The notes beneath the pieces are model-generated. The model ran no database searches, was not told the origin of the DNA, and worked only from the letters and a program-made list of their open reading frames with translations. From the NCBI GenBank assembly GCA_964609035.1, contig CAZSQL010000003.1, positions 4,058 to 68,057 on the forward strand: a stretch of 64,000 bases of DNA. The letters run 5' to 3'. A program made the translations under genes and the position numbers. Shown here piece after piece: positions 31,820-58,878 of the stretch (position 1 is its first letter; every line of letters starts with the position of its first letter). Source of the stretch: an uncultured Candidatus Peribacteria bacterium (GTDB taxonomy: Bacteria; Patescibacteriota; Gracilibacteria; Absconditabacterales; Absconditicoccaceae).

Positions 31820-32161
31820 ATGAAAATAAAAGAACTGCAAAAATTAGTTACAGATTTTAGAGATAAAAGAGACCGAAAACAATTTCATAATCCAAAAGAT
31901 TTAGTAGAGGCTATTTCTATAGAATGTTGAGAACTAATGGAGCATTTCCTTTGGAAATCACAACAAGAATCACAAAAAATTGCGGAAAATAATAATGATA
32001 TTGCAGAAGAATTTGCTGATATAATGAACTATTTATTATTATTCGCGGATATTTGTAATATAGATATAGAAGAATCCATTATCAAAAAGATCAAAAAAAA
32101 CAATTTAAAATACCCTGTAGAAAAATCTAAATGAAAAAGTGATAAATACAATAAACTTTAA
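31820..32161 (+). CDS. MazG-like nucleotide pyrophosphohydrolase
   Basis: 113 aa. FRDKRD(CGA)KQFHNPKDLVEAISIECGELMEHFLW...EEFADIMNYLLLFA, the all-alpha NTP-PPase pattern. Confidence 0.75.
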
Positions 32162-32184
32162 AATTTTTAATCAAAAAATATAAT

Positions 32185-33795
32185 ATGTGAGCTACTATAA
32201 TAGATATTCCATTCAATAAAAAAGAAATAGACTGATTTATGTATTATCATCGAGATTATGATAGTCGACCAGTAGTTTATCTTATAAAAGGAGAAAAACA
32301 TATCTATATTGGAGAAACAACGAATGCTTATAAAAGGATGAAAGATCATCTAAAGAATACAGAAAGAACAGATTTATTAAATGAAGTATTAATTTTATAT
32401 GATCCAGAATATAATAAATCAGCCACATTAGATATAGAATCTAAATTAATAGAATATATTTCTGGAGAAGATTCCTTTATTTTACAAAACAGAAACGATG
32501 GAATAAGGAATCATCAGTATTATGATCGTGAAAAATATCTTGCCAAATTTGAAGACGTGTGGAAAGACTTACAGAACAAAAGAATAGTATATAAAGATTT
32601 GAATGAAATAAGAAATAGTGATTTATTTAAATATTCTCCATATAAATCACTAAATAACGATCAATATAATGTTGTTACAGAAATATACGAAGATATTAAA
32701 AACAAAAGAAATTGAACATATATTGTTAATTGAGAACCAGGTACATGAAAAAGTGTTGTAGCAAGCTATTTAGTAAAATATTTAAAAGATAAAAACGATA
32801 CAAAGAATTTGAAAGTTGGTCTTGTTGTCCCTATGGCATGATTAAGAAATACTTTTAAAAAAATCTTTAAAAATATAGATTGATTGAAATCTAGTATGGT
32901 TATTTGACCAAATGAGATTGCAAAAGATTATTCAAACACAAACAAAACCCCATATGATATATTAATTGTAGATGAAGCTCACAGACTACAAAAAAGAAAA
33001 AATATAATGTGATATGGTGCTTATGATGATGTTAATAGAAAACTATGATTATCAAAAGAATCAACTCAATTAGATCGATTAATTAATTTATCAAAAACAC
33101 AAATATTATTTTATGATAAAAACCAATCAATAAAACCATCAGACGTGAATTCAGAAGATTTTGAAAAAATTAAACAAACAAAACATTATGTTTTAAAAAG
33201 TCAGATGAGAGTTAATTGATGAAATGAATATTTGAATTTTATAAATAATTTTTTCGATTGATTAAATCCAGATTTTATTAAAGTAAAAAATTATGATTTT
33301 AAATTATTTGATAATTTTAAAGATTTTAGAAATAATATCTTAGAAAAAGATAAAGAGTTCTGATTGTCTAGAATAGTCGCTTGATATGCACGATCACGAA
33401 CTTCTAAAAATAACCCCAATCAACATGATATAGAAATAGATTGAGTAAAAATGTTTTGGAATACTACAAATAAAGATTGGGTAAACTCTGAAAACGCTTT
33501 ACATGAAATATGATGTATTCATACTGTACAATGATATGACCTAAACTATGTATGAGTAATTTTATGAAATGAGCTATCTTACAATAAAGAAACTGGGGAA
33601 TTTATTATTAATAAAGATAATTATTATGATAAAAATTGAAAGAATTGAATTACAGATATGTATGAATTAAAAAGATATATAATAAATATATATAAAACCT
33701 TAATGACACGCGGGATTAAATGAACTTATATATATGTGGTAGATGATAATTTAAGAGAATATCTAAAAAGTAAAATAAAGTGATTTTTTTACTAG
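32185..33795 (+). CDS. GIY-YIG nuclease domain fused to DUF2075 (Schlafen-like) P-loop ATPase/helicase
   Basis: 536 aa. VVYLIKGEKHIYIGETTNAYKRMKDH (GIY-YIG), NGEPGTGKS (both Gly TGA), ILIVDEAHRL, SQMRVNGG, AGYA(CGA)S(CGA)TS, IHTVQGYDLNYVGVILG. The start may instead be 32239. Confidence 0.75.
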
Positions 33796-33816
33796 ACCCC
33801 AGGGTCTAACAAAAAT

Positions 33817-33984
33817 CTATCTTCCCCTTCCCCTAGCTCCTCTACTATTCTGAGACCTATTCAAATCGCCATCAGTCCTTCTAGGTTTTTTGTGAATTCT
33901 TTTTGGACCATATCACTCCTGTGACTGAGAATCTCTCCTTGGTGGATATTTTTTTGGTCATTCTGATTTATAATGAGACGCCAT
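33817..33984 (-). CDS. Basic RG-rich ORF, in frame with and probably once part of the helicase C-terminal tail
   Basis: MASHYKSEGPKKYPPRRDSQSQEGYGPKRIHKKPRRTDGDLNRSQNSRGARGRGR. Same frame as 34081..35385 with only one TAA (34081-34083) between them. Confidence 0.3.
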
Positions 33985-34017
33985 GAAAAATTGAATAATT
34001 GAAATTTTTCAAACGTC

Positions 34018-34113
34018 GAATTTATACCGACAGATATTAGAAACTTTTAGATCAACCCCGCAGTATTGCGGGGGAAGAGATTAAAAATTTCTAATGCGCT
34101 TCGGTATAAATTC
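34018..34113. repeat. 96-nt imperfect palindromic element overlapping the helicase stop codon
   Basis: GAATTTATACCG/CGGTATAAATTC (12 bp), ATTAGAAA/TTTCTAAT (8 bp), apical CCCCGCA-GTAT-TGCGGGG (34056-34073). Length is a multiple of 3. Confidence 0.75.
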
Positions 34114-56096: not shown

Positions 56097-56582
56097 CTAC
56101 TCTATTATATCACTATTAAAATTTCTATTCTTTTTTTTCTCAGAATGAAATTTTTTATTTTTTAATCTTTTTTTTTGTGCTTTCTTTATATTTTTCTCCA
56201 TTTTCTCCGGAATTTCTTTACTTATTCTTTCTGTTTCCTCTTCTAAAACTTCACGTAATAGTGATTTTAAATGACTCAAGACTTTCTCTTTATTTTTTTG
56301 AGCATGTCTTGTTTCCTGATTTTCCAAGATAACCATAGAATTATCGTGATGTATTTTACTAGGACCAAAGACTTCCACAAATTTATCCCATTTACTATCA
56401 TGTATTTCAAATGTCTCAAAAAATTTATTAATATCAAAAGTTAATTGAGCTTTTGAATTCCCATGATTAATATTTTGTCATCCATGTCCACTAGCATGCA
56501 CTAATTTTATTTCCCAAAATTTTTCATTATTTTTATCTAGTTTATGAATAATTTCGTCTATATTATGATTAATTGAATCCAT
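56097..56582 (-). CDS. arfB: ArfB-like peptidyl-tRNA hydrolase (class I release-factor GGQ domain) with basic tail
   Basis: 161 aa. HASGHGGQNINH (second Gly of GGQ is TGA at 56478-56480). Lys-rich C-terminal tail. Confidence 0.7.
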
Positions 56583-56700
56583 TAATTTAATTGTAAAAAA
56601 ATAAAACTACATAAAACATTATAAAAATATTTTTTTTTCTGTCAAAAAAAAGACACCATAAAGTGCCTTTATTATTTATGAACATTTTTTTATTGCATAT

Positions 56701-57636
56701 TTAGGCTTTTCTTCTAACAATTTTGTAAGCCAAATATAATATAATAGTTCATACAAGTATAGCTATCACATTTTCTTTTGGTCAAACAACAACTGGAGTC
56801 ACAGTAGTAGAGGTGGCTGTAGATGTTGATGTTGGATCTACAGCATCTGTTATTCAAACAGCATTAAATGTATAATTTATTTCTTTTCATTCATTATTTG
56901 GTATAAATTTAACAATGTGTTCACCATTTCTAGTCAAAGCAAAAGAATAAGATTCTGCTGACATATTTACAGTAGCTAGTTTACTAAAATTTCACAAGCT
57001 TTCATTCCACAAAAATATATCAATAGAATTACTACCATTTAAAGAAATCCATCTCAATGTCACATTGTTTCAATTTAAAGTATGTGATATATTTGCTAAA
57101 CTCATATCAGCTCAAGCAGAATGAAGATTTACTCAATTAACACAATCATCTCATTCTCAATGTAATTGATCACTCAATCTAAAACATAATTCGTTTGACA
57201 CTTCTCACAAAGTTCAAACAGAATCTTTGGGAATAGACATAACATAATATATTGTATTAGGATTTAACGTATCAGTAGTAGTTAGATTCATTGTAAAATT
57301 AGTCTGTCCAGCTAGATTAAGATTTGAAAAAACTTTTTCTTTTGTATTTGAAATCAATGTAGGATCAGCAACAATTTGAGATAAGGTATTTGGACCATAC
57401 ATCAATGTATAATGCCTTATTGTATCATTAAATTCATCTTTCAATACCGGAGATTTTATTGTAATAGATGTACTAGTAATAGAATCTACAGATATCTTGT
57501 CAGTAGCTGGCTTGTAACCAAACAAAATATTTTGTCATATATTATTTATATAATCTAATACACTATCAGAAAAAGAAAACCCAAATATACTAAGAGCAAA
57601 AAACGCTCACAAAACAAAGCTAATTAGTTTTTTCAT
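56701..57636 (-). CDS. Hypothetical surface protein (signal peptide, C-terminal TM anchor)
   Basis: 311 aa. MKKLISFVLGAFFALSIFGFS..., C-terminus ...VIAILVGTIILYLAYKIVRRKA. Confidence 0.55.
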
Positions 57637-57844
57637 AACAAAATTTGTTTTATAAATAAATAATTTACAAGACTATAACAAAATGTATGCATTTTTTAAT
57701 AGCTTTTTCAACATTAAATCAACAAAAATCTTGAAAAAATGTTAAAAAGTTTGACAAAAATGATTTTTCTGATATACAATGGTTATCACATTTTTATAAA
57801 AATATTAAATAATATGGATTTTTGGATTTAGTTTATTATAAATA

Positions 57845-57945
57845 TATAGTGTAAAGTTAGAAAGTATAAAGTTATCAAGTTTTATGTTGCAACTTTTAAC
57901 TTTAAAACTTTATTACTTGAAAACTTTTTAACTTGTAACTAAAAT
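57845..57945. repeat. Dyad array of AAGTTATCAAGTT / AACTTGAAAAC words (family 2)
   Basis: AAAGTTAGAAAGTATAAAGTTATCAAGTTTTATGTTGCAACTTTTAACTTTAAAACTTTATTACTTGAAAACTTTTTAACTTGTAAC ends 12 nt before the thyA ATG. Confidence 0.65.
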
Positions 57946-57948
57946 ATT

Positions 57949-58878
57949 ATGAAAGCGTACTTAGATTTACTAAAACACATTATGGACAACGGTACCGATA
58001 GAGAAGAGAGAACATGAGTAGGTACAAGAAGTATATTTTGAGCACAGGTAAGATATGATTTAAATAAGTGATTTCCACTTTTAACTACCAAAAAGGTTTT
58101 TTTAAAAGCTATAATTCATGAATTATTGTGGTTTATAAAATGATCAACCAATATAAAATATTTAGTAGATAATTGAGTATGAATACGAAATGAACGAGCT
58201 TTTACCAAATATCTCAAACATAATAATTTGGAAAACAAACGAGAAAGATATTCAGATGAACGACACAATGCTCTAAAAGAATTTGTAGAAAATATAAAAA
58301 ATGATAATGATTTTGCAGAAAAACGATGAGAACTTGGTCCAGTATACTGAAAACAATGGAGAGCTTGGGAAACAAAAAGCGGAAAAAGTTTTGACCAAGT
58401 ACAAAATATTATAAATATGCTAAAAAATGACAGGAGTTCTAGAAGAATAATTATATCATGATGGAATGCAGGAGAAATAGAAGAATTAATTCATAGTCAT
58501 GACTTCGCTCCTCCTCCATGTCACACACTTTTCCAATTTCACGTAATGAACAATAAATTATCATGCCAATTATATCAGAGAAGTGCAGATGTCTTTTTGG
58601 GTGTACCCTTTAATATAGCATCTTATGCTCTATTTACTATGATGATAGCACAAGTAAGTTGATTAGAATTGGGAGAGTTTATTCATACATTTGGTGATGT
58701 TCATATATATCACAATCATTTTGATCAAGTAAAAGAACAATTATCTAGAGAACCAAGAGCTCTGCCAACTATGAAAATAAATCCTGATATAAAAAATATT
58801 TTTGATTTCAAGTACGAAGATTTCACTATAGAATGATACGATCCACACCCACCTATCAAGGCTCCAATTGCAGTTTAA
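57949..58878 (+). CDS. thyA: Thymidylate synthase (ThyA) with Lactobacillus-type insertion
   Basis: 309 aa. ...I(CGA)NE(CGA)AF..., [40 protein letters not shown]. Confidence 0.9.

Follow-up and report, generated by a model that had tools for sequence, protein, structure and literature searches.

CGA and CGG as probable tryptophan codons in a 64-kb segment of Absconditabacterales (SR1) DNA

The DNA analysed in this work is a 64-kb stretch, hereafter the window (positions 4,058 to 68,057 of contig CAZSQL010000003.1, assembly GCA_964609035.1), and its subject is the meaning of the codons CGA and CGG, collectively CGR. The window is almost certainly chromosomal DNA of the Absconditabacterales (SR1), in which UGA would encode Gly, CGA and CGG would encode Trp, and Arg would be left with AGA, AGG, CGU and CGC. 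Alignment columns and the codons of relatives show a CGN box split into a predicted Arg half, CGY (CGU and CGC), and a predicted Trp half, CGR. The reassignment had already been predicted for the clade, UGA=Gly, CGA=Trp and CGG=Trp or undetermined having been proposed for Absconditabacteria (Shulgina & Eddy, eLife 2021; PMC8629427). The window agrees with it, and a detail on strand skew is its sole addition. Sense-codon reassignment in free-living or episymbiotic bacteria is very rare, and the SR1 case has so far been a computational prediction. The window is an independent illustration, relying on other genes than the original screen and on another line of evidence, the exchange of codons between orthologues.

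Homologues of the window proteins were searched with queries in which CGA and CGG had been masked as X against bias. Valyl-tRNA synthetase (ValRS; this and the other features are listed in Table 1) was aligned to 40 orthologues from genomes without in-frame TGA. Nine of its ten CGR codons fall on columns where Trp is the majority residue, and the tenth on a Tyr column. At the nine CGA columns Trp fills 79% of the outgroup cells, the rest being Tyr, Phe or Met, and Arg is never found; opposite the single CGG, codon 493 (53045-53047), all 40 outgroups have Trp and all 7 relatives have TGG. For comparison, outgroup cells opposite AGA hold Arg (63%) or Lys (18%), and those opposite TGG hold Trp in 77% of cases. 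The DUF2075 protein was aligned to 108 homologues, mostly of standard-code Patescibacteria, and four of its five CGA codons fall on columns occupied by Trp in 107-108 of them, the fifth on a Phe/Tyr column. When the two alignments are pooled, the majority residue is Trp opposite 13 of the 15 CGR codons, Tyr/Phe opposite 2 and Arg/Lys opposite none. The 13 TGG codons behave alike (11, 1 and 0, respectively), and 32 of the 41 AGA, AGG and CGY codons lie on Arg/Lys-majority columns, none on either of the other types. The difference between CGR (13/15) and the remaining Arg codons (0/41) at Trp-majority columns is highly significant (Fisher p=5.6e-11), and CGA alone scores 12 of 14, with no Arg/Lys column. 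Trp-majority columns make up 2% of all columns, which gives a binomial p of ~9e-21 for the CGR count; on these figures a chance origin of the pattern is excluded.

Solved structures and protein profiles point in the same direction. Codons 80 and 83 of thymidylate synthase (ThyA) correspond to both Trp residues of the I-W-D-E-W-A motif in 4 of 4 solved structures; the remaining three CGA codons (98, 105 and 126) are uninformative, being located within a variable insertion or opposite Tyr/Asn. The CGA codon of the MazG-like protein stands where five out of five solved DCTPP1/MazG structures have the Trp of RDWxQFH. Pfam scores were calculated for the same proteins with CGR read either as Trp or as Arg. 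Reading Trp improves ValRS against both PF00133 (297.5 versus 272.2 bits, +25.3) and PF08264 (113.8 versus 108.2, +5.6), ThyA against PF00303 (391.9 versus 378.2, +13.7) and DUF2075 against PF09848 (241.0 versus 237.8, +3.2). A previous reading of the window, made from the sequence only, had cited ten codons in these proteins and in a family-2 glycosyltransferase (GT2). All ten are present and in frame where it had placed them, the GT2 codon at 36575-36577 being CGA on the minus strand, and its claim that CGA and CGG occupy Trp positions in ValRS, DUF2075, ThyA and MazG is borne out by outgroup columns and solved structures. As a separate observation, ThyA matches ordinary bacterial ThyA structures at 1e-100 to 1e-112, and is only ~37% identical to its match in the syntenic relatives L002 and L009. 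Judging from these similarities, the thyA gene of the window may be a foreign replacement, already carrying five CGA codons.

The GT2 family is nearly confined to the recoded clade, and provides an example of a minus strand site. The codon at 36575-36577 (column 180) falls on a Trp conserved in homologues of Levyibacteria and Magasanikbacteria and in a distant hit (P0311), as the sequence-only reading had maintained, though the motif it had quoted, EVP..W, is not the one found in the alignment. Column 194 holds Trp, Tyr or Val across homologues, and alignments to solved structures reach only the N-terminal half of the protein. The gene (36389-37330, minus strand) is split by a frameshift near ...IVEV/LEKITQ..., by comparison with L079, a contig of 90% identity in which the gene is intact (241 amino acids); the frameshift could denote a pseudogene or an assembly error. 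Two CGA codons of the metallophosphoesterase are within hydrophobic N-terminal stretches, in the contexts VVxIFYAIW and ICLLxIIFG, which would suit Trp rather than Arg, and the codon at 43066 is TGG in L079. In the S-adenosylmethionine (SAM)-dependent methyltransferase, two of the three CGA codons have TGG as their counterpart in either L009 or L002, and CGA in the other of these two relatives. The CGA codons of the HtpX protease are kept in L079; only one is covered by the profile, on a variable column, and no outgroup column is informative. Alignments to solved structures put the codons of HtpX and of an aminotransferase on unconserved columns, and neither DUF2075 nor a GH3/YkuD-like protein found matches among solved structures.

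Independent support comes from the codons that relatives use at the same sites. Orthologous codon pairs were collected for 24 genes, from alignments with at least 45% protein identity. CGA codons of the window are paired with CGA in 62 instances, TGG in 42, CGG in 1 and other codons in 4, with no Arg codon among them. Conversely, TGG codons of the window are opposite CGA or CGG in 29 pairs, and CGG codons of relatives are opposite window TGG in 4. Neither AGA (365 pairs) nor CGT and CGC (20 pairs) are ever found opposite CGA or CGG, and CGT has AGA and CGC, not CGA, as its counterparts in relatives. As far as codon comparison can tell, this pattern of CGA/TGG exchange is that of synonymous codons, not of amino acid replacement. 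The numbers of Trp-type codons per gene tell the same story. Standard-code ValRS genes contain 17-25 TGG codons, and those of the window and close relatives contain 9-11 TGG plus 9-11 CGR; the sum in the window, about 20, equals the TGG number of standard-code orthologues. In the ValRS gene of one SR1 bacterium (L088, 10001-12454; GCA_026397475.1) CGR occupies 17 of the 20 Trp positions, and the reassigned codon is therefore not rare everywhere in the order. By the same criterion CGA/CGG is now the predicted dominant Trp codon in at least some genes of some SR1 lineages.

AGA, AGG, CGU and CGC retain the meaning of Arg in motifs, alignment columns and orthologue pairs. The motifs that the sequence-only reading had taken as controls are written as it had described: Arg is AGA/AGG in HRIGRTGR of the DEAD-box helicase, CGC in CAERCA of cytidine deaminase and CGT in a GADAR motif, and the Trp codons of QWRAW in ThyA are TGG. 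UGA is in turn a sense codon of the window, and its predicted meaning is Gly. Stop-to-stop open reading frames (ORFs) of at least 100 amino acids sum to 20.7 kb, the longest being of 300 amino acids, when TGA is taken as a stop, and to 88.5 kb, with a longest one of 892 amino acids, when only TAA and TAG are. TGA occurs 36 times per 1000 codons, and is among the commonest codons of the window. At TGA columns Gly fills 51% (ValRS) and 65% (DUF2075) of the outgroup cells, and the Gly residues of motifs such as DKTGT and GRTGR are written TGA. The proposal that a second reassignment, from Arg to Trp, came on top of a first one agrees with these data, TGA being read as Gly, and CGR as Trp by columns, orthologue pairs and profile scores.

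The assignment of the window to a clade is based on the best hits of ValRS, DUF2075 and GT2. Scanning species-representative genomes with ValRS identified loci with 78-80% protein identity in genomes named Absconditabacterales, candidate division SR1 or Patescibacteria; protein matches reach 88% identity, and include proteins named Absconditabacterales. Proteins of the closed SR1 genome RAAC1_SR1_1 are among the best matches of both DUF2075 (69% identity) and GT2 (61%). Since the best hits are of Absconditabacterales/SR1, an order of GTDB class JAEDAM01, the window is assigned to the clade for which UGA=Gly and CGA/CGG=Trp had been predicted. The sequence-only reading had referred to a computational proposal of this kind for Absconditabacterales without being able to place the contig; the best hits supply the placement, and the published prediction agrees (PMC8629427). 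The likeness to the SR1 code extends to the three codon meanings, the low GC and the prevalence of AGA among Arg codons. The G+C content is 22-34% along the window, 0.27 overall, within the 0.26-0.38 of the clade; usage per 10,000 codons is 30.5 for CGA, 2.8 for CGG and 71 for UGG, within the published ranges of 13-41, mostly below 7, and 35-75, respectively, per 10,000 aligned codons (PMC8629427). Usage per 1000 codons is 21.4 for AGA, 4.2 for AGG, 2.4 for CGT, 0.9 for CGC, 3.1 for CGA and 0.3 for CGG. The window thus combines a low GC with sparing use of CGN codons, and has AGA for its chief Arg codon. The strand-dependent choice between CGA and UGG reported below is, in contrast, not described in the text of that paper (PMC8629427).

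Some observations weigh against this interpretation. CGG is represented in the window by only five codons, one of which (ValRS 493) is on a strongly conserved column, the other four being at unconserved positions; about 30 of the 55 CGR codons of the window are in poorly conserved positions. Two profile comparisons favour Arg, HtpX with PF01435 by 3.1 bits (119.8 for Trp, 122.9 for Arg), because the column is variable, and ValRS with PF09334, a non-cognate methionyl-tRNA synthetase (MetRS) model, by 5.5 bits (79.7 versus 85.2). No gene for a tRNA, tryptophanyl-tRNA synthetase (TrpRS) or arginyl-tRNA synthetase (ArgRS) was found in the window or in ~10 kb of extensions, provided by same-strain and related contigs, which add ~7.5 kb to its left end and ~2.9 kb to its right end. 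A scan for tRNAs with the UCG anticodon, described below, listed no SR1 contig among its matches, though the pattern used might not fit the SR1 tRNA, and the matches listed that lack A20 and carry G73 belong to organellar, phage and UGA=Trp systems. Finally, the literature still terms the SR1 reassignment experimentally unverified.

Among the alternatives, the one that survives best is ambiguous decoding, with CGA and CGG being read now as Trp and now as Arg, or a state of transition in which they are decoded poorly. That codons can be reassigned by way of ambiguous intermediates is well recognised, and Codetta returned CGG as undetermined or Arg in some members of the clade (PMC8629427). The hypothesis is nevertheless very improbable, as none of the 15 testable CGR codons falls on a column conserved as Arg or Lys, CGA is found at invariant catalytic Trp positions where Arg would be harmful, and ambiguity would be costly when CGA makes up 58% of the plus strand Trp-type codons and 17 of 20 positions are recoded in the ValRS of one relative. 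Alternatively, CGA and CGG may still encode Arg, in a reduced, AT-rich and fast-evolving genome that tolerates Trp to Arg changes, or in genes that are decaying. CPR (candidate phyla radiation) genomes do evolve fast, the CGA-bearing GT2 gene is frameshifted in the window, and the two profile comparisons mentioned above marginally prefer Arg. Yet, the replacements would have hit catalytic or invariant Trp residues of essential enzymes (IWDEWA of ThyA, several motifs of ValRS), which 13 of the 15 testable codons occupy, without ever touching an Arg column, Arg is absent from the standard-code homologues at the CGR columns, and CGA is interchanged among relatives with TGG, never with AGA, AGG or CGY; retention of the Arg meaning is accordingly given hardly any weight. 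An artefact of sequencing, assembly or mis-binning, which the metagenomic origin and the one frameshift might suggest, is scarcely credible, because the same codons recur in independent JGI, ENA, Logan and NCBI assemblies (90-100% identity) and in species-level relatives. Logan SRR5581382 and ENA ERZ17914141 contain the same strain, and JGI 3300077098 and 3300077074 a relative with 97% identity. No more credible is the hypothesis that Arg codons in DNA are edited to UGG in mRNA, since nothing in the present data favours it, each codon would need two distinct types of edit, one of C to U at its first position and one of A to G at its third, and to our knowledge no such editing system is on record for bacteria. 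The UCG and CCG tRNAs reported in the clade, with Trp-type identity, would moreover make editing unnecessary (PMC8629427).

How CGR codons would be read as Trp can be proposed from the literature on the clade. CPR bacteria lack tRNA-Arg(ACG) and hence inosine decoding of the box, CGY being read by tRNA(GCG) and CGR by tRNA(UCG) and tRNA(CCG); tRNAs with UCG, CCG, GCG and CCA anticodons are present in the SR1 set, with no ACG and one GCG tRNA in all members (PMC8629427). The SR1 tRNA(UCG) and tRNA(CCG) have G73 and no A20, which is consistent with charging by TrpRS, a pair A/G1:U72 being optional (PMC8629427). In the window, CGA and CGG would be read by such tRNAs, devoid of the Arg identity element A20, provided with the G73 discriminator and charged by TrpRS. 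CGU and CGC would be read by tRNA-Arg(GCG), and no tRNA-Arg(ACG) with inosine would be left to read CGA as Arg. The arrangement plausibly originated by codon capture, in an AT-rich genome in which CGN codons were already rare. The only deaminase encoded in the window is a cytidine deaminase, not the tRNA adenosine deaminase TadA.

ARAGORN and Rfam searches found no tRNA gene in the window, the tmRNA (transfer-messenger RNA) being the sole RNA gene identified, and no tRNA with a UCG or CCG anticodon was detected in the ValRS neighbourhoods of other SR1 genomes. Viral and metagenome collections were searched for tRNA-shaped DNA combining a UCG anticodon, any residue except A at position 20, a T-loop and G73, and 6 viral and at least 120 metagenome matches were obtained. 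Several of them were discarded. L193, L108 and L140 are mitochondrial and encode ND1/ND4L, and L159 and L202 resemble fungal mitochondrial tRNA arrays. L099 and L199 carry a Trp-type tRNA(UCA), and are therefore UGA=Trp systems, not code 25. The standard-code Patescibacteria L019 and L053 have, beside ValRS, tRNA(UCG) genes of the ordinary Arg type (A20, A73), which served as a control only. Two matches may be recorded apart. A phage array of 18 tRNA genes in the 79-kb viral contig IMGVR_UViG_3300029142_000001 (L090) includes, at 10613-10685, a tRNA with the UCG anticodon that is otherwise similar to tRNA-Trp, with A1:U72, G73, C20 in place of A20, and a D arm and an anticodon arm much like those of E. 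coli tRNA-Trp. The ORFs of this phage read normally with code 11; going by its sequence, the tRNA could allow insertion of Trp at CGA codons. The contig Ga0075464_10076312 (L148; 39% GC) has, as read manually, a UCG tRNA that lacks A20 and whose U1:A72 and G73 make up an acceptor end of the glutamine type.

Bacterial sense-codon reassignments documented to date all involve Arg codons, except a predicted change of the Thr codon ACA to Asp (2026 preprint). The closest cases are those of Anaerococcus and Ca. Onthovivens/RFN20 Bacilli, in which a CGN-box Arg codon, CGG, has likewise been captured by Trp in a low GC background, with tRNAs of Trp-type identity, featuring G73 and no A20 (PMC8629427; PMC13092985). 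CGG alone changes in these organisms, and CGA stays Arg via tRNA-ICG, whereas both codons change in the window. The change of both in SR1 has been attributed to the use of tRNA-UCG, not tRNA-ACG with inosine, by CPR bacteria (PMC8629427). CGG=Gln in Peptacetobacter and AGG=Met in Enterosoma are also computationally inferred sense-to-sense changes of a rare Arg codon in an AT-rich genome, but target amino acids and codons are different, and the lineages unrelated. NCBI translation table 25 (SR1 and Gracilibacteria) shares UGA=Gly with the window, but keeps CGA and CGG as Arg, and database proteins of the clade therefore show Arg at Trp positions. In line with this, deposited SR1 proteins (P0121-P0132, P0241-P0284) are split between Trp and Arg at DUF2075 and GT2 columns which are invariantly Trp elsewhere. 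The split is a systematic mistranslation, due to annotation with tables 11, 4 or 25. These tables put Arg in place of Trp at about 3 codons per 1000, often at catalytic Trp residues, and for this clade alignments, predicted structures and metaproteomic searches are all distorted by the error.

The choice between CGR and TGG depends on the strand. About three quarters of the coding capacity are on the minus strand, and C exceeds G steadily along the plus strand. The CGR:TGG ratio is 34:25 in plus strand genes versus 20:94 in minus strand genes (Fisher p=1.3e-7). CGR makes up 58% of the Trp-type codons in genes of the C/A-rich plus (lagging) strand, and 18% in genes of the G/T-rich strand; the genes at 32185-33795 and 51569-53992 on one side, and those at 19943-21403, which encodes a RuBisCO homologue on the leading strand, and 28255-30921 on the other, exemplify the contrast. 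The CGR fraction of single genes drops as the G-over-C skew at third positions rises (Spearman rho=-0.81, p=3e-6, 23 genes). A change from TGG to CGA swaps T for C and G for A, changes that are favoured on the G/T-poor strand, which would account for CGA being the majority Trp codon in plus strand genes and a minority one in minus strand genes. Two-fold sites differ between strands by ~2.0-fold for A versus G at position 3 and ~2.4-fold for C versus T at position 1, so that ordinary synonymous sites predict a CGR/TGG strand odds ratio of ~4.8, compared with 6.4 observed in the window. Deeper SR1 loci show the same effect (odds ratio 3.8, p=8e-7). In pooled close relatives it does not reach significance, nor does it among nine orthologues of ValRS (rho=-0.53, p=0.15), of which L001 and L004 depart from the trend; both results count against the strand-skew reading.

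According to our own view of the process, UGG, CGG and CGA would form a neutral synonymous series, whose equilibrium would be set by the mutational skew of the replication strands. The strand effect would be a plausible, rather than an established, consequence of neutral drift along this series. Whether CGA became after its capture a fully neutral synonym of UGG, with a frequency dictated by replication-strand skew and not by selection or tRNA supply, is a proposition that we regard as evenly balanced. If true genome-wide and across the order, SR1 genomes would allow the "rebound" phase of codon capture to be followed in nature, together with the UGG-CGG-CGA mutational path, of which we know no previous description.

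Table 1. Genes and other features of the window, with the codons relevant to the reassignment
Feature	Position	Strand	Codons and other details
Valyl-tRNA synthetase (ValRS)	51569-53992	+	9 CGA, 1 CGG, 10 TGG, 26 TGA; CGR at 51605, 51617, 52076, 52622, 52682, 52736, 53045 (CGG), 53201, 53309, 53399
DUF2075/Schlafen-group-3 helicase-like protein	32185-33795	+	5 CGA: 32251, 32266, 33076, 33391, 33397
Thymidylate synthase ThyA	57949-58878	+	5 CGA: 58186 (codon 80), 58195 (83), 58240 (98), 58261 (105), 58324 (126); TIGR03284, 456 bits
MazG-like protein/dCTP pyrophosphatase	31820-32161	+	CGA 31874-31876; PF12643
Family-2 glycosyltransferase (GT2)	36389-37114	-	CGA 36575-36577, 36533-36535; frameshifted near 5' end
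SAM-dependent methyltransferase	55550-56095	+	3 CGA: 55940, 55970, 55976; methyltransferase family matches
Membrane-anchored metallophosphoesterase, YaeI/LpxG-like	43009-43911	+	4 CGA: 43066, 43174, 43588, 43846
HtpX-type M48 protease	38911-39849	+	4 CGA: 38938, 39064, 39127, 39331
DEAD-box helicase (control)	34081-35385	-	Arg of HRIGRTGR AGA/AGG; Gly TGA
Cytidine deaminase Cdd (control)	37492-37962	+	Arg of CAERCA CGC; NF004064, 84.6 bits (cutoff 74)
tmRNA	31292-31682	+	Arg of tag AGA
RuBisCO large-subunit homologue	19943-21403	-	8 TGG, 0 CGA/CGG
AMP-phosphorylase-like paralogues (two)	17851-19371, 24357-25919	-	in nucleotide-salvage cluster
IF-2B-family ribose-1,5-bisphosphate isomerase, candidate	26796-27716	-	in nucleotide-salvage cluster
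Reverse transcriptase	6531-7748		group II intron-like; weaker Drt2/Drt3a/retron matches below cutoffs
AbiEii toxin gene	9927-10784		possible partner gene upstream, 9343-9936

Small repeats with GC-rich hairpins (TCTTGCAGGCGCG ... CGCGCCTACATTG) are found at 27928-28150 and 61090-61300, with three clear copies in two intergenic regions, in 27% GC surroundings; they have no Rfam match. Two ORFs containing CGA, CGC and CGT, 27903-28274 and 60995-61360, overlie these repeats, to which they owe their spurious existence; they are not genes, and were excluded from every count.

The region 6100-10800, which hosts the reverse transcriptase and AbiEii genes, is apparently a variable island, and the alignment to the 97%-identical relative L082 ends at window position 6096. 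A nucleotide-salvage cluster of the CPR type extends on the minus strand from 14955 to 27716, and includes the RuBisCO large-subunit homologue and pyruvate kinase.

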